Source: Parcubacteria group bacterium GW2011_GWA1_56_13
Lineage (GTDB): Bacteria; Patescibacteriota; Minisyncoccia; Phycocordibacterales; Phycocordibacteraceae
Assembly: GCA_001004905.1 (NCBI GenBank)
Contig: LCRY01000002.1
Location: 269,873 to 333,872, forward strand
Direction of reading: 5' to 3'
Length of the DNA stretch: 64,000 nt
Part shown: positions 35,623 to 54,804 of the stretch, piece after piece
Layout: every line of letters starts with the position of its first letter
Numbering within the stretch: position 1 is the first letter of the stretch
The notes under the pieces: generated by a model
Seen by the model: the letters and a program-made list of their open reading frames with translations, nothing else
Told to the model about the DNA's origin: nothing
Database searches by the model: none
Program-made: the position numbers and the translations under genes

Positions 35623-35695
35623 TGGACCCGAGGGGAATCGAACCCCTTGCCTCGTGCATGCCATGCACGCGCTCTACCAAGTGAGCTACGGGCCC
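35623..35695 (-). tRNA. tRNA-Ala (anticodon GGC)
   Basis: Manual cloverleaf: acceptor GGGCCCG with the G3:U70 Ala identity pair; anticodon loop ATGGCAT. Confidence 0.85.
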
Positions 35696-36381
35696 TTTTT
35701 ACTAAAACTCGTCATCACCTGTTGGGCTATTCGTTTCAGTTCCAAATCAACGGCCGAAGAGAAATAATCGATGCGGCATACTCCTTTGTACTCTCTCTTC
35801 TCAGAGACTCGTCCCAAAGTCCGTTTATCGACCCGCGCTCCGTAGAACTGACTAAGAGGAATTCTCGTTGTTTCTGACCAGAACTTTTCAAGTTTTTTGA
35901 TATCCTGGTCGGCCCTACACTGCAGGGTGCAGCGGAACTTTCGTTCGTCTAATTTGTAGCATTCTCTCATTAAGTTTACAAACATAAGCACTATCGCTGG
36001 ATCAGAATTGCCGAACATCAGCGAGCCACGAGATGATTTGGACCCTTCGGCGAGATAAAGGACGGCTAAGACAATCTTTCTTGTGCGATTGTCTGCGGCA
36101 AAAACATGGAGTAAATCCTTATTTTGCGCGTCCAAACTTTCAAAGAAGGCTTGTTGGCGCTCTTTTCTCTTTCTGGAGGAGATCTCCTGGGCTTTGGCGA
36201 AGTTCAACTTGTTCAGCTTTTGTACCTTAACGTGATAACTTCTCGGCAAAGTGATATTCCGGCACCAGTAACTCAATGTGCTCTTGGGAATGTCAATCTT
36301 CAGAAGCCTCTTGATTTCAGAGTACGTCTTGCCTTTCCGACGAAGCTGCGCCGCTCGTTCTTGCGATGATACCGGCAACAT
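35686..36381 (-). CDS. low-GC ORF with an N-terminal HTH and a LAGLIDADG-like motif (LAVLYLAEGS); putative homing-endonuclease-like protein; the stop overlaps the tRNA-Ala(GGC) 5' end by ~10 nt
   Basis: Motif comparison with LAGLIDADG (LAGLIDADGS); local GC ~45% versus ~60% background. Confidence 0.4.
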   Translation of the reverse strand: MLPVSSQERAAQLRRKGKTYSEIKRLLKIDIPKSTLSYWCRNITLPRSYHVKVQKLNKLNFAKAQEISSRKRKERQQAFFESLDAQNKDLLHVFAADNRTRKIVLAVLYLAEGSKSSRGSLMFGNSDPAIVLMFVNLMRECYKLDERKFRCTLQCRADQDIKKLEKFWSETTRIPLSQFYGARVDKRTLGRVSEKREYKGVCRIDYFSSAVDLELKRIAQQVMTSFSKKGP

Positions 36382-36436
36382 GGGAATATTGTACCCCTAA
36401 TACCTCCATCGGCACTTGCGCACCGTGTACAATTTG

Positions 36437-36474
36437 TGGACCGTAGCGGATTTGAACCGCTGACCTCGTCAATG
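36437..36474 (-). repeat. tRNA-Ala 3'-half fragment (anticodon-stem 3' strand, variable loop, T-arm, acceptor 3' strand)
   Basis: CATTGACGAGGTCAGCGGTTCAAATCCGCTACGGTCCA; pairs with the 5' half at 36593..36623, including G3:U70. Confidence 0.7.
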
Positions 36475-36499
36475 TTCACCCCGTTAGATATCTCTTCGG

Positions 36500-36572
36500 T
36501 GGACCTGGGGGGATTTGAACCCCCTACCTCGTCAATGCGAATGACGCGCTCTACCAATTGAGCTACAGGCCC
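36500..36572 (-). tRNA. tRNA-Ala (anticodon CGC), flanked by 12-bp inverted repeats and nested between two halves of another tRNA-Ala
   Basis: Cloverleaf: GGGCCTG...G3:U70; anticodon loop TTCGCAT. Flanks ccccgttagata (36479..36490) and tatctaacgggg (36577..36588). Confidence 0.85.
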
Positions 36573-36592
36573 ATATTATCTAACGGGGCGCG

Positions 36593-36623
36593 TGACGCGC
36601 TCTACCAGCTGAGCTAACGGCCC
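36593..36623 (-). repeat. tRNA-Ala 5'-half fragment (acceptor 5' strand, D-arm, anticodon-stem 5' strand)
   Basis: GGGCCGTTAGCTCAGCTGGTAGAGCGCGTCA. Confidence 0.7.
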
Positions 36624-36744
36624 AAACATGAACAGAACGGACTGGCGGGCAGGCAGGTAAGGATAACGCGCTCTACTGCAAGAAGCGAGGCGAAATAAAA
36701 TTCGATTTATTTCTGCCGAGCGCCGCAGCAGAAAGCCCGCAGGG

Positions 36745-36767
36745 CTTACCAGCTGAGCTAACGGCCC
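36745..36767 (-). repeat. second copy of the tRNA-Ala 5' fragment (GGGCCGTTAGCTCAGCTGGTAAG)
   Basis: 21-nt identity with the 5' half at 36593..36623. Confidence 0.6.
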
Positions 36768-36821
36768 GTGCGAAACATGCTAACACGCTCGAATATTATT
36801 TTCATCGGGCCACCGGGAATC

Positions 36822-36908
36822 GGTCACGGATAATTTTCTCGCCGTCGCTCGAAAATTTCCTCGACCCCGTCTCGCCGTTCGGCTTGCTAGCCGAACAGTG
36901 CTCCGACT
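36822..36908. repeat. ~88-nt structured direct repeat R1 (tRNA-linked)
   Basis: ~90% identical to R2 at 37233..37320; internal hairpin gttcggc-tagcaa-gccgaac. Confidence 0.7.
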
Positions 36909-36919
36909 TTCGATTCCTT

Positions 36920-36990
36920 TCGGGCTACCGGGAATCGAACCCGGACTGCATGACCCCCAGCCACGCGTACTACCACTATACGATAGCCCG
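36920..36990 (-). tRNA. tRNA-Pro (anticodon GGG)
   Basis: Cloverleaf: CGGGCTA (C1:G72), anticodon loop CTGGGGG, T-arm CCGGG-TTCGATT-CCCGG. Confidence 0.7.
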
Positions 36991-37142
36991 TTTTCGGAGA
37001 TGTTCTGTGTCGGGCCGCCGGAAATTGGTCACGCAGAATCCCGTGCTCGGGATTTGCGCGACCCCGCCTCGCGCCGTCGCGCTCCGGCCTTCAATTCCCG
37101 ACGACATGGCGCCCTCTTCGGGAGGTGTTCTCTGTCGGGCCG

Positions 37143-37213
37143 CCGGGAATTGAACCCGGTCTACACGCACCCGAAGCGTGCGTACTACCGGCATACTCCG
37201 GCCCGACACAGAA
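37143..37213 (-). tRNA. tRNA-Pro (anticodon CGG)
   Basis: Cloverleaf: CGGGCCG (C1:G72), anticodon stem CACGC/GCGTG, loop TTCGGGT. Confidence 0.8.
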
Positions 37214-37232
37214 CACCTCCTTGTGGTCACGG

Positions 37233-37320
37233 ATAATTTTCTCGCCGTCGCTCGAAAATTTCCGCGACCCCGCCTCGCGGTTCGGCCTACTGACCGAACA
37301 TCGCTCCGGCTCGCACAAGG
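37233..37320. repeat. ~88-nt structured direct repeat R2
   Basis: See R1. Preceded (minus sense) by a 15-bp perfect hairpin caaggggcacgagaa-gcatgt-ttctcgtgcccttg directly after tRNA-Val. Confidence 0.7.
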
Positions 37321-38009: not shown

Positions 38010-38016
38010 ACTTCAG

Positions 38017-38112
38017 TGGACCCGACCGGACTTGAACCGGTGACCCCTTCATTGCAAATGAGATGCTCTACAGCAAGGAGAGAGGCCGAAGGACTTACCA
38101 GCTGAGCTGGGG
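38017..38112 (-). pseudogene. decayed tRNA-Ala(TGC)-like copy with an insertion after the D-loop and no intact acceptor 5' strand
   Basis: ...GCTCAGCTGGTAAG-[27-nt insertion]-GTAGAGCATCTCATTTGCAATGAAGGGGTCACCGGTTCAAGTCCGGTCGGGTCCA. Confidence 0.55.
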
Positions 38113-38126
38113 ATTCAAAACTTGGG

Positions 38127-38199
38127 TGGACCTGACCGGTTTCGAACCGGTTACCTCCTCATTGCAAATGAGGCGCTCTACCAATTGAGCTACAGGCCC
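38127..38199 (-). tRNA. tRNA-Ala (anticodon TGC)
   Basis: Cloverleaf: GGGCCTG..G3:U70, anticodon loop TTTGCAA. Confidence 0.85.
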
Positions 38200-38260
38200 A
38201 CCCAAGTTTTCAATCTTATTTCTTGATCCTACAATATCATTTTCGGCCGATTATTTGAAG

Positions 38261-49963: not shown

Positions 49964-50000
49964 GATTAAAAAAGCCCGCGTCCCTCTTGACGCGGGCTTT
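49964..50000 (-). terminator. intrinsic terminator
   Basis: aagcccgcgtc-cctcttg-acgcgggctt followed by a T-run on the minus strand. Confidence 0.7.
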
Positions 50001-50017
50001 GAGGATGCCTATTGCTT

Positions 50018-50260
50018 TTATTCGACGAGGTGTGCAAGGACTCCCATTTCGTCCGGTTCGAGGAAGACCGTGGCGCCTTCGAGCATTTCAGCGAAAGCAT
50101 GGTCATCGGGAATTTCCGCCTCGAAGGTCTTTTCGTATGGTTCTCCTTCTTTTCTCCCGGCCATTGCCGCTTTCGTTGTCTCAAGCTGTGCATGGTCCCT
50201 GCTGAGGGAAACCACGACTCCCTTGCCGTAGATCTGCCACTGCTGCACTAGGACTCGCAT
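50018..50260 (-). CDS. small hypothetical protein (start at MRVLVQQW)
   Basis: The longer ORF-track version overlaps the PspC gene and is judged spurious. Confidence 0.35.
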   Translation of the reverse strand: MRVLVQQWQIYGKGVVVSLSRDHAQLETTKAAMAGRKEGEPYEKTFEAEIPDDHAFAEMLEGATVFLEPDEMGVLAHLVE

Positions 50261-50417
50261 GGGTTCCCCTCCTTGCGCAATTTCGCATATGTTTCCGACT
50301 TCAAGGTATCGAGCGGATTCACGCGACCTCCTAAGAAGAGTTTGAGTGTACGTATAACCTACTCTGCGTACAGAGATATCACGAGGAAAGCCAGAAATCA
50401 AAGGAGGGCCGGGCGTG

Positions 50418-50612
50418 TCAGAGTGCGCTCTTTTCGGGCGCGAGCGGGACGAATATCCACGCGGCGATGTAGGCGATGAGGAACGCGCCGGAGAACATGA
50501 GGCCGAACGTGACGAGCCGGACGATGATGGGGTCAATGTCGAAATATTCGGCAAGCCCTCCCGCCACTCCGCCGATGATTCTGTTGGTCCGCGAACGATA
50601 AAGTTTTTTCAT
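50418..50612 (-). CDS. PspC-domain membrane protein
   Basis: MKKLYRSRTNRIIGGVAGGLAEYFDIDPIIVRL. Confidence 0.85.
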   Translation of the reverse strand: MKKLYRSRTNRIIGGVAGGLAEYFDIDPIIVRLVTFGLMFSGAFLIAYIAAWIFVPLAPEKSAL

Positions 50613-50911
50613 CCTGTAGTGAAATTTTGGTTTGTTAAATCCTTCGACCTTTCCTTATATAGGAACTCTTTTAATCTCCTCTTTAATAGTCTACCACCTT
50701 GGGTTGTCTTCAAATACCCCTCTCGCCTTTTGGCATCAACGTCATCGAGACAAGCCTCGTAGTAAATAATTTGCCATGGTAGATATCGCTTGGTCGACGG
50801 ATTTAACCCTTGATTATGTTCTGCCAACCTTCTTTTTAGGTCGGTAGTATACCCGACATACAACTCATTATTTTTCTTACTCTGTAGAACGTAGGTATAG
50901 AACATAATCAA
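50609..50911 (-). CDS. GIY-YIG nuclease family protein
   Basis: FYTYVLQS...ELYVGYTTDLKRRLAEHN. Confidence 0.8.
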   Translation of the reverse strand: MIMFYTYVLQSKKNNELYVGYTTDLKRRLAEHNQGLNPSTKRYLPWQIIYYEACLDDVDAKRREGYLKTTQGGRLLKRRLKEFLYKERSKDLTNQNFTTG

Positions 50912-50950
50912 ACCAAAATTCTACTACGGGATTCATGCGTACAGTATACC

Positions 50951-51319
50951 TCAGTCGGCACTCGCTTTATTCGCCTTCGCTTTTGCCTTTAGCATTCGCT
51001 GTATGACTGTCGCCGGAACTTTTTGGTCGAATCGTATCTGTACGGTTTTACTGCCGGTCGTATAGCCCTTCTTTTCAAGCGCTTTGCGGTCTTTGTTTGG
51101 GAGCGCGGAGGCGAAGCCGAATCCGGCGTGATTCTTGAACGCGGCAAATCCGGCAAGAAGCCCGTGATATTTGTAGAACGGTATGCCCCAGCTTATTCCC
51201 TCTTCCGCTTTCGGAATGGCCGACGTTATGACTTTCCGGAGCTCTTTGAGCGTCGGACGGGCTTCTTTGCCCGAACCGGCGATGTAAGCGTCAACATCTT
51301 TTGCGCGATAGTTCCTCAT
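50951..51319 (-). CDS. DUF1801 (YdhG-like) domain protein
   Basis: Family-level similarity. Confidence 0.6.
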   Translation of the reverse strand: MRNYRAKDVDAYIAGSGKEARPTLKELRKVITSAIPKAEEGISWGIPFYKYHGLLAGFAAFKNHAGFGFASALPNKDRKALEKKGYTTGSKTVQIRFDQKVPATVIQRMLKAKAKANKASAD

Positions 51320-51362
51320 ATGCCTGGTCGGGTGATTTTACCATTTTGACCCTCTTCGGAAT

Positions 51363-52139
51363 TTATATTCTTTCAGTGTTCTGAACTAAGTTATTCAGTT
51401 CTGCATATAACCTTACGAAGAATTTTTTCATATCTAATTTGTGAGTTTCGCCAATTGGAACCTTCGACTTCAATATTCCGCCAACTTGTTTACTAAATCT
51501 AGAGTTTGTCTTACCGCCTGAATGTAAAGTAATATTTCTTAAAGCGTTGAGGAGTTTCAGCCTTTCGAGATCCTTCTTAGTTTTAAATATTTTTATGCCA
51601 AAACGTTGTGTCAGAAAAGTGGCCCAAGTATCTATATCTTGGGATTTTTCAATGGCTATGGAATCAATAAAGTAGTTCTTGACCTCTAAAACCTTTTTAA
51701 AATCCTTAACATCTTCAAACTTGAGAACTCTTTCCGACTGAAACGATGACGGGTATTTTTTAAATAATTCTTTTAGTATCTCAAACATAAAACATTCAAA
51801 GTTTGCAAATAACGCTATAAATCCTAGTTCGTAGAGCTTCACCATTTGATTGTCGTTAATTTCCAGGTATTTTTTAAACTGTCCGTATCCCGGGTGAGTT
51901 TTTGCCTTCGTAAAATCAAGTAGTTGCTCGGTTGCTCCAATCTGCGCCTCTAACGCATGAATTAGTAGGTATGTCTCCTGAACCTCTTTTTTTAGGTTGA
52001 TTAAGGATTTTAGATTTTTAGAGTTAATTTTTTCATAAAATTCTTCGGAGTCCGAAACTATCTCAAACGGCACATTCGGCCTACTGGCCTCAGTACACCT
52101 TCGCTCTCGCTCAGTTGCTGCCCGATGGGATTTGGTCAT
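51363..52139 (-). CDS. hypothetical protein with a possible HEPN-like Rx4H motif (ALRNITLH); Abi-like? low GC
   Basis: Motif only. Confidence 0.3.
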   Translation of the reverse strand: MTKSHRAATERERRCTEASRPNVPFEIVSDSEEFYEKINSKNLKSLINLKKEVQETYLLIHALEAQIGATEQLLDFTKAKTHPGYGQFKKYLEINDNQMVKLYELGFIALFANFECFMFEILKELFKKYPSSFQSERVLKFEDVKDFKKVLEVKNYFIDSIAIEKSQDIDTWATFLTQRFGIKIFKTKKDLERLKLLNALRNITLHSGGKTNSRFSKQVGGILKSKVPIGETHKLDMKKFFVRLYAELNNLVQNTERI

Positions 52140-52151
52140 ATATAAGGAGGA

Positions 52152-53084
52152 TTACTGAGAGAAATCTTTTAGTTTGAAACTGATCTCATATAGAAAGACT
52201 TCGATATTGGGGACCATCCGGAGTGCGTAATCTAGACGTTTGTCGTAAGATCCGGCGACTATAACTGCTTTCACATTATCGTCTCCCTTATTGGCCTTTA
52301 TCCAACCCATATATCGCGTAGCTTGCCCAACCGTGTCATCACTTGTTTGATTCCGCTTTAGTTCAATGACCACATGGCTACCAGTCTTTTTATCCTTTGC
52401 GAGAATATCAATCGGACCTATATCCGTTTTGTATTGCTGGCTCATGAGTTCTCCATCTTCAACAATTAAGTCGAAGCGTTTCCCAAGCTCTGTGTTATCC
52501 CAATTATGAATTAGAAAGTCCTCAAGTTGCTTTTCCATGTAAAAAAGACCTTGGCTCGTCGGGGATTTCTCGTCCCGAATCTTAAGAGAAGCTACTTTGC
52601 CATAATATTCGAGCAACGTCTGAAGATCTGATTCAAGTTCTTTATCTCCAGCTAACTCTCCGCTTTTAGCGTATACGATTGCGAAACTATCACTGTGTTT
52701 CGCAAACTGTAATTGATATACCTTGAAAACAAAAGAATCTCCGTATCGAGGAACCTTCTCTCCAAAGAAAGCTTCAATAGTGTTAGCTTCATTTTGTATT
52801 TCCACTGGCCAAGCTTCTGCGTATGCTTCAGTCTCGCTCACTCCATATGCAAGAATTAGTGTTTGACGATCTTTGTAATAAAGATATACGGGGTAAAAAC
52901 CCTTACTCACTTTCATTTCCGGAGTAGTGAACGCAATCCAAGGAACTCTTGCGGGAGATCCCATACCAAATGACACCTGCATCCGGAAATCGGCTAGAGT
53001 TCTAGGGTAAATAGCTGTTTTAAGTTCCGTGGAATTAGCTTGAACGATAAAGTCTCTAAGGGTTTTGGCAAAGCCGTCCATCAT
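52152..53084 (-). CDS. DUF3578 (McrB-N-like modified-DNA-binding) domain fused to a DUF91/NucS-like PD-(D/E)xK nuclease; putative single-chain modification-dependent restriction enzyme
   Basis: N-terminus VPWIAFTTPEMKVSKGFYPVYLYYKD; C-terminus DIGPIDILAKDKKTGSHVVIELKRNQTSDDTVGQATRYMGWI. Confidence 0.55.
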   Translation of the reverse strand: MMDGFAKTLRDFIVQANSTELKTAIYPRTLADFRMQVSFGMGSPARVPWIAFTTPEMKVSKGFYPVYLYYKDRQTLILAYGVSETEAYAEAWPVEIQNEANTIEAFFGEKVPRYGDSFVFKVYQLQFAKHSDSFAIVYAKSGELAGDKELESDLQTLLEYYGKVASLKIRDEKSPTSQGLFYMEKQLEDFLIHNWDNTELGKRFDLIVEDGELMSQQYKTDIGPIDILAKDKKTGSHVVIELKRNQTSDDTVGQATRYMGWIKANKGDDNVKAVIVAGSYDKRLDYALRMVPNIEVFLYEISFKLKDFSQ

Positions 53085-53177
53085 ATAATTTCCAATCTAA
53101 TCCGCCCTAGTCACAGGTACGGTGTCCCGATTTGCTGCCTGCGATTCCTGTATCTGATATCGTCTCCAGCATATGGC

Positions 53178-53214
53178 AAAATCATCCCACAAAATCTTCA
53201 TTTTTGCGACTCCC
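53178..53214. repeat. 37-nt perfect direct repeat, copy A (leader module upstream of the DUF3578-DUF91 gene)
   Basis: Identical to 53926..53962; on the minus strand it reads GGGGAGTCGCAAAAATGAAGATTTTGTGGGATGATTT (Shine-Dalgarno plus the start of a uORF MKILWDD...). Confidence 0.8.
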
Positions 53215-53287
53215 CCGCCCTGCAGCGGGTATCCCCAAGTAGGAGAGTTCACTTGAATTTAAGAATGCTTTTGGCTATAATGGGGGC

Positions 53288-53361
53288 ATCTTTTGGTCCT
53301 CGGACTGAAAGGGTACTACATCCAAGAGCAGCCCTCCTCACGGAGGGCTGCTTCTATTTTT
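53288..53361 (+). ncRNA. candidate ~70-nt small RNA: near-consensus promoter (TTGAAT-N16-TATAAT at 53254..53281) and an intrinsic terminator (53328..53361). Its 3' end converges on the NYN gene stop
   Basis: Seen directly; no + strand ORF in the interval. Confidence 0.35.
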
Positions 53362-53920
53362 GCCGGTGCAGGAGTTGCCTGCCCCAAATATCATCTTCAA
53401 TAGTGAGGATATCGGTATATCCGTCCCCACCGGTTTTGAGTTCGCGCGAAATATTGTTTTTCGAGGAAAAGACATATGTCTTTTTGCCACCGTTGCGAAG
53501 GTATCTGACAAGAGCTAGGAAATCCGAATCGCCGGTAAAGAAAACTGCTGTGCTGTAGGAATCGCGATGATGCATTGCATCGATTGTTATCTCGACATCC
53601 ATGTTCCCTTTTTCTTCAAATGAATCGCCATTCTCGCCATGGATAGCGATGCGCTTCAGTTCTTTCTTTCGGACAATAAAGCCAAGTCCTTTTTTAAGAT
53701 AAGTATAGAATTTATGTTTGCCTTCGAGACTATAAGTCCGTGTCCCTTTTGCTGGGTACGCAGTATAGAAAAATATCCTAACTAATTTTGGTTTGAATCT
53801 ATTTTGGAGATATTTTTGCAATTTCTGATAGTCAAAGACCCGGCCTTTCGCTTTCTGAGCTTCCCACACATTTGCCGCATCAATAAAGACGGCGATGCTA
53901 TCGTGAATTGCCCGCGCCAT
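53354..53920 (-). CDS. NYN-domain (LabA-like) putative ribonuclease
   Basis: IAVFIDAANV...; NYN fold residues. Confidence 0.8.
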   Translation of the reverse strand: MARAIHDSIAVFIDAANVWEAQKAKGRVFDYQKLQKYLQNRFKPKLVRIFFYTAYPAKGTRTYSLEGKHKFYTYLKKGLGFIVRKKELKRIAIHGENGDSFEEKGNMDVEITIDAMHHRDSYSTAVFFTGDSDFLALVRYLRNGGKKTYVFSSKNNISRELKTGGDGYTDILTIEDDIWGRQLLHRQK

Positions 53921-53925
53921 ACATT

Positions 53926-53962
53926 AAATCATCCCACAAAATCTTCATTTTTGCGACTCCCC
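53926..53962. repeat. 37-nt direct repeat, copy B (leader module upstream of the NYN gene)
   Basis: See copy A. Confidence 0.8.
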
Positions 53963-54014
53963 TACTGCCCGACAGGAACCGCGAGTACGCCTTGTGAAGG
54001 TGTCTTCGGCGGAG

Positions 54015-54629
54015 CTACCCTAAGTCCAGCTTTCGGAGAACAGCTTGTGTGTCATCCTCCTGTTTTCTGACTTCCACCCATGGATAACCGTATTTCTCGA
54101 CATCTGCCTTTAGCAGATGGCTGAATAGGGTTGCCCACTCAACCTCTTTTTCCTTTACTTCGTCGGGATACGTCCGTGCGCCATCCCATAAACCACGCTT
54201 AAAGATGACTTCGCGCATCCTGTCCGCATCCTCGTCTACTAGGAAAACCGCTTTAACATGAGGAGTATTGCTGAAGTCCCTTGCGACTAGGTGCGGTAAA
54301 ATGGCGACGCCCTCCACGACAAAACCCTTGCGCCACGGGTATTCCTCTTCAATAAGCTTCTTTACCCCAGGCCACGTTGCCTCTCCCTTCTCCATCTCCA
54401 TGCGCACTATTTCTTGGGCCGAAAATTCGGTGAGGAACTTTTCTCCTGAATAGCCCTCGTCGCTGAAAAGGTTCGGTATTTCCGAGGGGTTAGCAACGGT
54501 CCGCATTATTTCCTGTACTTGGTCCGTTGATATCCAAGGAACATTCAGATGCGCCGCAACTGCTTCGGCAATAGTTGACTTGCCGACCGTAGGAGCACCG
54601 CCTATCAAAATAATCTTTCTGTCTTTCAT
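54015..54629 (-). CDS. P-loop NTPase / kinase-like protein
   Basis: Walker A: GGAPTVGKST. Confidence 0.6.
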   Translation of the reverse strand: MKDRKIILIGGAPTVGKSTIAEAVAAHLNVPWISTDQVQEIMRTVANPSEIPNLFSDEGYSGEKFLTEFSAQEIVRMEMEKGEATWPGVKKLIEEEYPWRKGFVVEGVAILPHLVARDFSNTPHVKAVFLVDEDADRMREVIFKRGLWDGARTYPDEVKEKEVEWATLFSHLLKADVEKYGYPWVEVRKQEDDTQAVLRKLDLG

Positions 54630-54804
54630 ATACGTGATTATATCGCACCACCAAAATCATGTATTTGAACGCGTCTGCAACGCAAGAACCTATCCCAAAC
54701 TGGTACGTTCGGCCTGGGACGGTATTGGAACTTCACCCGAGTCTAATGAATCCTAAGTTAGGATGTTGCTCACGTACCGTGAAATTCTATCGTACGCATA
54801 CATG

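Follow-up and report, generated by a model that had tools for sequence, protein, structure and literature searches.

A complete tRNA-Ala(CGC) gene nested in the anticodon loop of another tRNA-Ala gene in Candidatus Kaiserbacteria

Anatomy of the nested tRNA-Ala genes

The window analysed here is a stretch of 64,000 nucleotides from contig LCRY01000002.1 of Parcubacteria group bacterium GW2011_GWA1_56_13, a member of Candidatus Kaiserbacteria in the Candidate Phyla Radiation (CPR, Patescibacteria), and it carries on its minus strand an array of tRNA genes in which one tRNA-Ala gene lies inside another. This nest, 187 nt in length (36623-36437, minus strand), consists of an outer tRNA-Ala gene (hereafter A) bearing an insert that holds a second, complete tRNA-Ala gene (hereafter B). 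Fragments of tRNA genes are normally read as the scars of integrating phages and islands; the anatomy of this scar differs in that what appears to be a complete replacement gene lies inside the old one, inverted repeats bound it, and no recombinase is found nearby. An earlier note on this DNA had described a complete tRNA-Ala(CGC) gene between the two halves of a second tRNA-Ala gene, and each of the pieces that it named lies where the note placed it, correct to the base. The pieces are as follows, in minus-strand order (other loci compared in this study are given by L numbers):

36593-36623, minus strand: 5' half of A, 31 nt, tRNA positions 1-31, with the acceptor strand GGGCCGT, the D arm and the anticodon-stem strand CGTCA; its 3'-terminal letters are ...GCGCGTCA
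36589-36592, minus strand: left junction filler CGCG, whose last two bases are able to lengthen the repeat helix to 14 pairs
36577-36588, minus strand: left inverted-repeat arm CCCCGTTAGATA, which contains CGTTAGAT
36573-36576, minus strand: ATAT spacer between the left arm and B
36500-36572, minus strand: inner gene B, a complete tRNA-Ala(CGC) of 73 nt, called by ARAGORN and scoring 69.6 bits with the Rfam tRNA model, against a gathering score of 29
36491-36499, minus strand: short trailer of B, CCGAAGAGA, 9 nt
36479-36490, minus strand: right inverted-repeat arm TATCTAACGGGG, set back 7 nt from the right junction and an exact reverse complement of the left arm
36472-36478, minus strand: right junction TGAACAT, the last three bases of which (CAT) match the 3' end of the ancestral loop TTCGCAT
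36437-36471, minus strand: 3' half of A, 35 nt, positions 39-73, with TGACG, the variable loop, the T arm, the acceptor strand ACGGTCC and the discriminator A; it starts with TGACGAGG...
directly after the 3' half of A, minus strand: native trailer CAAATTGTACAC, conserved in L007, L012, L074 and L076

B has the cloverleaf, the G3:U70 pair, the 7-nt loop, the U33 and the anticodon CGC of a canonical bacterial tRNA-Ala, as judged from ARAGORN, Rfam and the sequence. It is the only Ala(CGC) gene that ARAGORN calls in the window, and Rfam likewise calls the inner gene alone in the nest; B is presumed to be the working copy of Ala(CGC). The insert is 121 bp long, of which 73 nt are tRNA, and the repeat arms lie 4-7 nt from its ends. 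The perfect 12-bp inverted repeat that had been described as bracketing the inner gene is indeed exact (12/12), and its 12-mer occurs exactly twice in the window, where near-matches are no commoner than chance. Once the next two bases are added the repeat is 13/14 at the DNA level; if C-G and G-U are taken as pairs, the helix has 14 pairs and an internal loop of 2 + 5 nt remains.

The two halves of A pair as perfectly as had been claimed, G3:U70 included: when joined by the normal loop TTCGCAT, they give a flawless tRNA-Ala(CGC) cloverleaf. Folding of 36437..36623, which the earlier note had proposed, recovered the cloverleaf within a cloverleaf that it had drawn, with z = -5.4 relative to shuffled sequences. 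The nest is 100% identical in three further assemblies, i.e. the NCBI metagenome-assembled genome GCA_003531405.1, one assembly from ENA and one from JGI, which represent the same population in different projects. Since no difference was seen in four independent assemblies, the nest is real DNA and no error of a single assembly. Between the window and one of the compared loci (L002) there are 12 differences, all of which fall within the Pro repeats of the array, while the nest is invariant.

The resident gene, the inner gene and similar nests

Synteny was anchored on homologues of a 231-aa open reading frame (ORF) that follows the nest, and loci were fetched through this ORF. In the closest syntenic relative (L076) the order is Pro(CGG), Pro(GGG), a repeat with a Pro fragment, an intact Ala(CGC), the ORF, Ala(GGC), MscL and SWIB. 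A matches the intact Ala(CGC) of this relative at 30/31 nt in the 5' half and 31/35 nt in the 3' half, and the trailer after the latter gene, CAAAAAGTTGTACAC, is equivalent to the window trailer. An intact Ala(CGC) also lies 56-57 nt ahead of the ORF in L007 (57 nt), L012 and L074, and the 3' end of A lies 55 nt ahead of it. The identity between A and the L007 gene is 91% (60/66 nt), with one compensatory pair in the acceptor stem. The earlier note had held that the insertion sits exactly at the anticodon loop of a formerly intact outer gene, for which an uninterrupted counterpart should be sought in relatives; such a counterpart is found at the position of A in both L076 and L007. Because the intact syntenic gene and its trailer match A in this way, A is shown to be the resident orthologue of the gene that is intact in relatives, and the nest to be the derived state. 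By the same comparison, the 121 nt are read as having replaced the 7-nt loop TTCGCAT of A. The perfect halves of A would mean that the event was recent, and are by themselves no sign that A is used; the likeliest status of A is that of a newly made pseudogene and not of a tRNA gene with an intron.

B is 83% identical to A, and the differences in the acceptor and T stems are paired and compensatory. Its closest CGC gene is the Ala(CGC) of L012 (89%), which occupies the same locus and shares the acceptor stem, and its closest match overall is the Ala(GGC) of L012 (91.5%); furthermore, the first 27 and last 8 nt of B are those of the window's own Ala(UGC). Because B is closest to the L012 genes and shares its ends with the Ala(UGC) of the window, it would be an allele that came from a related lineage or else a mosaic put together from paralogues. 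The sequence CGTTAGAT inside the left arm is the native leader immediately upstream of the intact Ala(CGC) in L076; thus the insert appears to begin with a native-type leader and to close with the first 12 nt of that leader repeated in inverted form. Scans for promoters and terminators found none on the minus strand of the array, and B must be transcribed from upstream, as there is no room for a promoter of its own. Leader-trailer helices are no general feature of CPR tRNAs, the values observed in 98 tRNAs not differing from the permuted ones, and the idea that the inverted repeat is such an RNA processing stem was rejected.

One metagenome scan was made for the 5' part of a tRNA-Ala gene followed by a new tRNA-Ala start within 12-42 nt. 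It returned 25 loci, most of which are a truncated copy ahead of an intact gene or an assembly repeat (e.g. L048, L058 and L050/L061). Three of the 25 are true repeat-bounded Ala-in-Ala nests, which are listed here with that of the window:

window nest: Ala(CGC) in Ala(CGC); break 31/32; perfect 12-bp repeat; both outer halves intact
L053: Ala(GGC) in Ala(GGC); break 44/45; imperfect repeat of 12-13 bp; outer 3' part present, with G3:U70 intact and extra T-loop hairpins
L059: Ala(CGC) in Ala(CGC); break 35/36; repeat of 9 of 11; outer 3' part degenerate
L060: Ala(UGC) in Ala(UGC); break 39/40; perfect 12-bp repeat CCCCGCACTAAA / TTTAGTGCGGGG; outer 3' part reduced to GGTCCA

In L060 the arms lie directly at the insert ends, and the right arm lies beyond an intrinsic terminator, for which reason the repeat is a DNA feature and not a transcript helix. 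A further locus (L070) has a 5' fragment and the left arm only. The repeat sequences differ between nests, and the left arms resemble native tRNA-Ala leaders of relatives: CCCGCAC, present in an arm of L059 and L060, is found in the L074 leader, and TCTGCC of L053 in the L012 leader. Arms of different nests also have short cores in common (CCCCG, CCCGCAC and CTGCCAA). The inner and outer anticodons agree in all five cases, for which about 0.004 is expected by chance. No integrase, transposase or ORF homologue was found on the contigs of L053, L059, L060 and L070, and two scans of viral contigs, one with B and one with the nest pattern, returned nothing relevant, L071 being the same contig as L068. 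As to their hosts, the tRNA-Ala genes of L059 and L060 start with GGGCC, like most of the CPR tRNA-Ala genes compared, while the leucyl-tRNA synthetase (LeuRS) of L053 has its nearest matches among proteins with names from Falkow-, Komeili-, Doudna- and Uhrbacteria, some few of which carry a DPANN label.

Judged from these alignments, a leader-plus-tRNA unit with an inverted terminal copy is shown to have replaced a few bases near the anticodon loop of the isoacceptor gene, independently in several lineages, with imprecise breakpoints (positions 31 to 45) and with decay of the outer gene afterwards. By its structure the nest belongs to what appears to be a small class of tRNA-in-tRNA insertions, bounded by repeats, that recurs in CPR-like genomes and of which no description was found in the literature searched.

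Origin of the insert

We lean, with a confidence a little above even, towards the reading that A is the resident Ala(CGC) gene whose loop has been replaced by the 121 bp, so that A is now a non-functional shell and B the working gene. The insert would then be made up of a native-type leader of ~16-20 nt, a tRNA-Ala(CGC) of a different allelic type, the 9-nt trailer, and an inverted 12-nt copy of the leader. As its origin we infer break repair at the DNA level with a template switch: a break would arise in or near the anticodon-loop hairpin of A, it would be repaired by copying a homologous tRNA-Ala unit (an allele of a related strain or a paralogue), and one template switch would produce the inverted terminal copy. 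The agreement of anticodons fits a homologous template, or selection against the loss of an isoacceptor. Several points weigh against this reading. The leader homology extends over 8-10 nt only (p ~0.003-0.005 by a rough estimate), and a donor locus for B with its flanks was not found. Terminal inverted repeats would be expected of a transposable element as well, and outer halves that are still flawless would also fit a function. Finally, the 5/5 agreement of anticodons could equally result from selection after random insertion, from a local or allelic origin, or from targeting.

The main rival is a mobile tRNA cassette, i.e. a small non-autonomous element in which a tRNA bounded by inverted repeats inserts in the anticodon region and survives only when its cargo replaces the gene that it destroys; we regard this as unlikely, while giving it real weight. 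The earlier note had raised a tRNA-carrying miniature element, and the part of that idea which stood is that repeat-bounded nests recur. Perfect 12-bp repeats lie near the insert ends in the window and directly at them in L060, those of L053 and L059 being imperfect, and the cores common to the arms of different nests and the identity of cargo and target anticodon in 5/5 would suit such an element. The insert resembles miniature inverted-repeat transposable elements (MITEs) in being short and non-coding with perfect terminal inverted repeats (12/12), and it differs from them in lacking a target-site duplication, in having been seen as a single copy in the window and the fetched loci, and in its leader-like arm and what looks like a functional-type tRNA as cargo. 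In fact, the flanks CGCG and TGAACAT hold no direct repeat, and the target bases of the loop were deleted rather than duplicated. Moreover, no transposase lies nearby, the breakpoints range from position 31 to 45, and the arm sequences are matched in the leaders that ordinary tRNA-Ala genes of relatives have, the left arm of the window looking more like the gene's own leader than like the end of a transposon. The 12-bp flanked unit, which the earlier note had suggested looking for elsewhere, has no further copy of its repeat in the 64-kb window or the 77 fetched loci, the other nests being built with other repeats.

It is conceivable, on a wider and speculative view to which we assign a low likelihood, that repeat-bounded units of leader and tRNA represent a previously unrecognised route of tRNA gene turnover in CPR, which could take two forms. 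In the first, a tiny selfish cassette would home to the anticodon region of a replaceable isoacceptor gene. In the second, a transcript-shaped unit, reaching approximately from transcription start to terminator as in L060, would be copied into a break at the anticodon hairpin, and a snap-back would make the inverted repeat. If this were true, no fresher example than that of the window would be known, both halves of the victim being still intact there. A regular process of this kind would explain how single-copy tRNA genes are swapped between lineages of minimal genomes without loss of function, would give annotators a reason to seek nested and half genes in CPR, and would be a natural instance of one tRNA gene expressed within another.

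A separate proposal concerns the cause of the break and not the structure of the nest, namely that the neighbouring 231-aa ORF is a putative homing endonuclease whose cuts at tRNA-Ala genes triggered the rearrangements. We consider it improbable. The ORF lies 55 nt from the nest, its family adjoins tRNA genes, and the local tRNA-Ala paralogues are mosaic. Set against these observations, the other contigs with nests carry no homologue of the ORF, 42 other loci (on 37 contigs) with the ORF or a relative lack tRNA-Ala fragments, and the ORF has no match in Pfam, NCBIfam or Foldseek. Because there are nests without the ORF and ORF loci without tRNA-Ala debris, its role in the nest is a proposed one only.

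A functional interrupted outer tRNA, in which the inner tRNA would be freed by RNase P and RNase Z or the helix cut by RNase III, and the halves would be ligated or act as a split tRNA, is in our estimation very improbable. The halves do pair perfectly, the predicted fold is strong, and a 14-bp helix joins the halves much as in Nanoarchaeum, in which split tRNA half genes carry complementary 12-14-nt leaders. However, no joining of the halves restores a loop of 7 nt that has both U33 and an anticodon for Ala: all joinings of the flanks (CGCG.../...TGAACAT) give G33 and are read by ARAGORN as Val(AAC) or odd forms, the residual loop CG + AACAT having G33 and a Val anticodon. In addition, this anticodon is already provided by the inner gene, an uninterrupted gene suffices in relatives, and the outer 3' half is decayed or deleted in L059 and L060, in the latter of which the right arm lies past the terminator.

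The known kinds of interrupted tRNA gene do not accommodate the nest either, and the intron-like insertion considered in the earlier note does not hold up. ARAGORN with intron detection, with options up to 3000 nt, left the outer gene uncalled, and an Rfam search over the array found tRNAs only, with no intron, ribozyme or other family at the gathering score or at E <= 1. A group I intron has a catalytic core (P3-P9), is usually >200 nt long, and is detectable by the Rfam model Intron_gpI; the insert is too short for one (121 nt), is mostly tRNA, has no Rfam match, and has no junction that restores the loop. In Patescibacteria, the tRNA introns of a known kind are group I introns in anticodon loops (PMC13011429). 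The nest shares with them the phylum and the affected loop of the tRNA, and differs in being too short, in having no ribozyme core, and in that the interrupting sequence is itself a tRNA gene. Introns of the archaeal type are marked at the exon-intron boundaries by a bulge-helix-bulge, i.e. two 3-nt bulges with a helix of 4 bp between them. The prediction for the nest is instead a 2 x 5-nt internal loop with a 14-bp helix, and inspection gave no alternative pairing with a bulge-helix-bulge. Although the nest is like archaeal split and intron-containing tRNAs in that a 12-14-bp helix joins the halves at the anticodon stem, it differs from them in lying in a bacterium, with no bulge-helix-bulge geometry and no known endonuclease/ligase pathway, in having both halves in one locus around another tRNA gene, and in that relatives have the outer gene uninterrupted. 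No splicing endonuclease or RNA ligase was noticed among the window ORFs examined (~33-40 kb and 49.5-57.4 kb).

That the nest is the remnant of an integration by an anticodon-loop integrase, in which the att site was duplicated and the element later deleted, seems to us just as far-fetched; the earlier note had considered serial duplications of this kind, and they are at odds with the structure found. An att duplication leaves an element with a tyrosine or serine recombinase gene between direct repeats of a tRNA segment, and reconstitutes the tRNA gene at one end. In the nest the repeat at the boundaries runs inverted, no reconstituted gene is present, the insert codes for no protein, and no recombinase lies near; the neighbours of the nest are MscL, SWIB, a methyltransferase and the ORF with helix-turn-helix and LAGLIDADG-like domains. 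No integrase lies near any of the nests, and their breakpoints are imprecise and differ from one another. Such elements are nevertheless the usual origin of tRNA gene fragments. Fragments left by integrated elements as attL/attR duplications are described in PMC9897764, which cites Williams 2002 and names the anticodon loop, where the break of the nest also lies, as a known sublocation of integrases, and in PMC3293823, on the tRNA-Thr of Caldiarchaeum. The nest is like these scars in that a resident tRNA gene is interrupted in the anticodon-loop region by an incoming full copy with partial copies adjoining, and differs in its size (121 bp, not kilobases), in its cargo of a tRNA only, in the absence of an integrase, in the inverted repeats, in the loss of target bases, and in that both old halves are kept in register around the new gene. 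An assembly artefact that joined reads of similar tRNA genes can be practically dismissed, as the nest is identical in assemblies from different projects and the stretches shared (14 and 9 nt) are far below assembler k-mers, even though tRNA genes do have short identical stretches and the Pro part differs between assemblies.

The surrounding tRNA array and the neighbouring ORF family

The minus-strand array reads Ala(UGC), a decayed Ala(UGC)-like copy, Val(CAC), Pro(CGG), a Pro 3' fragment, Pro(GGG), another Pro 3' fragment, a fragment F1, the nest, the 231-aa ORF and Ala(GGC). Its other features are:

38011-38117, minus strand: decayed Ala(UGC)-like copy directly after the intact Ala(UGC), with no 5' acceptor strand and one anticodon-stem mismatch
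36822-36908 and 37225-37311: 87-nt repeats, each ahead of a tRNA-Pro 3' fragment; repeats of this kind stand between several members of the array
~36805-36830 and 37010-37035, minus strand: tRNA-Pro 3' fragments, with Pro(GGG) and one copy of the 87-nt repeat between them (span 36805-37035)
36663-36767, minus strand: F1, a truncated second copy of the 5' part of A, with positions 1-21 and 19-29 identical to A
35686-36381, minus strand: 231-aa ORF that starts with a helix-turn-helix and has a LAGLIDADG-like domain towards the C-terminus; the stop codon lies inside Ala(GGC)
35623-35695, minus strand: tRNA-Ala(GGC), overlapped for 10 nt by the 3' end of the ORF

F1 breaks off in the anticodon stem, 144 nt upstream of A. 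Its D loop holds a 70-nt insertion, and a homologous insertion of 24 nt lies in the D loop of the decayed Ala(UGC)-like copy. The Pro part of the array differs between assemblies by 108 nt (L001) and 125 nt (L002). Because F1, the decayed copy, the two Pro fragments, the 87-nt repeats and these differences in copy number all occur here, the array is a recombination-prone hot spot of illegitimate duplication, in which partial copies of tRNA genes arise and persist.

The insertions of F1 (36677-36746, minus strand) and of the decayed copy (38070-38093, minus strand) fall at the same point of the D loop, in the arrangement GCTCAGCTGGTA / AGYCCTKCGGSCT...TTGCW / GTAGAGC, and the longer one, that of F1, has an additional hairpin inside it; hairpin insertions are also seen in L053 and L059, where they lie in the T loop of the outer gene. 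A repeat with a Pro fragment related to those of the window is found in L076 and L074 as well. Two tRNA genes of the array have flanking helices. For Pro(CGG) this is a 15-bp leader-trailer helix (37199-37220 / 37121-37142) continuous with the acceptor stem, the sequence of which is conserved in L007 (6576-6647) and L076 (45-116); for Ala(UGC) it is a 16-bp helix (38112-38134 / 38193-38215) that is present in the window and absent in L074. Ala(UGC) was also considered as a second invading module. This idea was rejected, since L074 carries that gene too, with the same trailer and the same start of the leader, and since the decayed copy resembles the intact gene at least as closely as it does relatives.

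The ORF is treated here as a neighbour of the nest and not as a part of it. The nest nevertheless drew attention to an uncharacterised LAGLIDADG-like family that lies ahead of, and overlaps, specific tRNA genes across CPR, with ~900 homologues (members include L004-L045 and L072-L077). Searches of Pfam, NCBIfam and PDB sequences gave no match for the ORF; its AlphaFold model is confident (pLDDT 92.5), and Foldseek with this model found no match. LAGLIDADG homing endonucleases are marked by an alpha-beta fold in which the motif helix ends in an acidic residue followed by Gly. The alignment of the family shows the motif LAxLYLxEG with an invariant E112-G113 and the helix-turn-helix ahead of the motif. 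A tRNA gene lies within 85 nt of the ORF end in 37 of 39 loci, which come from different genomes; the remaining two have a broken frame or a contig end. In 17 of the 39 loci the overlap is exactly 10 nt, by which the stop codon is formed by tRNA bases 8-10, and cutting of a co-transcript of the ORF and the tRNA by RNase P would remove the stop codon. Close homologues of the ORF precede Ala(GGC), and distant ones Gln(UUG), Arg, Gly or Ile.

A conserved promoter-like motif, TTGCAC-N17-TACAAT in most loci, lies at ~36388-36431 of the window (minus strand) and at the equivalent place in L004-L037 and L072-L076; it ends 6-10 nt ahead of the ATG of the ORF, and its form in the Kaiserbacteria group is TTGTACAC ... 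GGTACAAT. This arrangement suggests a leaderless or near-leaderless mRNA, and the motif may also drive the downstream tRNA gene. The ORF belongs to an apparently undescribed tRNA-linked family with a predicted LAGLIDADG-like fold, whose product may create breaks near tRNA-Ala genes. SegB of phage T4 is a free-standing homing endonuclease in a tRNA gene cluster (PMC2330249). The ORF is like it in being a nuclease-like gene wedged between tRNA genes, and differs in its predicted fold (LAGLIDADG-like rather than GIY-YIG), in being chromosomal and conserved across CPR classes, and in having its stop inside a tRNA gene. L070 (5499-5760) holds a 5' fragment of Ala(CGC), an intact Ala(CGC) and, 71 nt further on, Ala(GGC), with no ORF between the last two, and this Ala(CGC)-Ala(GGC) junction is possibly an empty site for the family.

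Two further observations lie apart from the nest. Positions 50000-54700 of the window form a low-GC island (0.43-0.50 vs ~0.58 elsewhere), which encodes a nuclease of the McrB-N/NucS-C type, a NYN-domain protein and proteins without a family match, and is probably a horizontally acquired island of the defence type. Furthermore, LeuRS genes of the compared loci encode inserted domains, i.e. an alpha/beta hydrolase in L053 (242-3237), where the gene is split into two ORFs, and a NUDIX domain in the Kaiserbacteria locus L001 (15441-18281).

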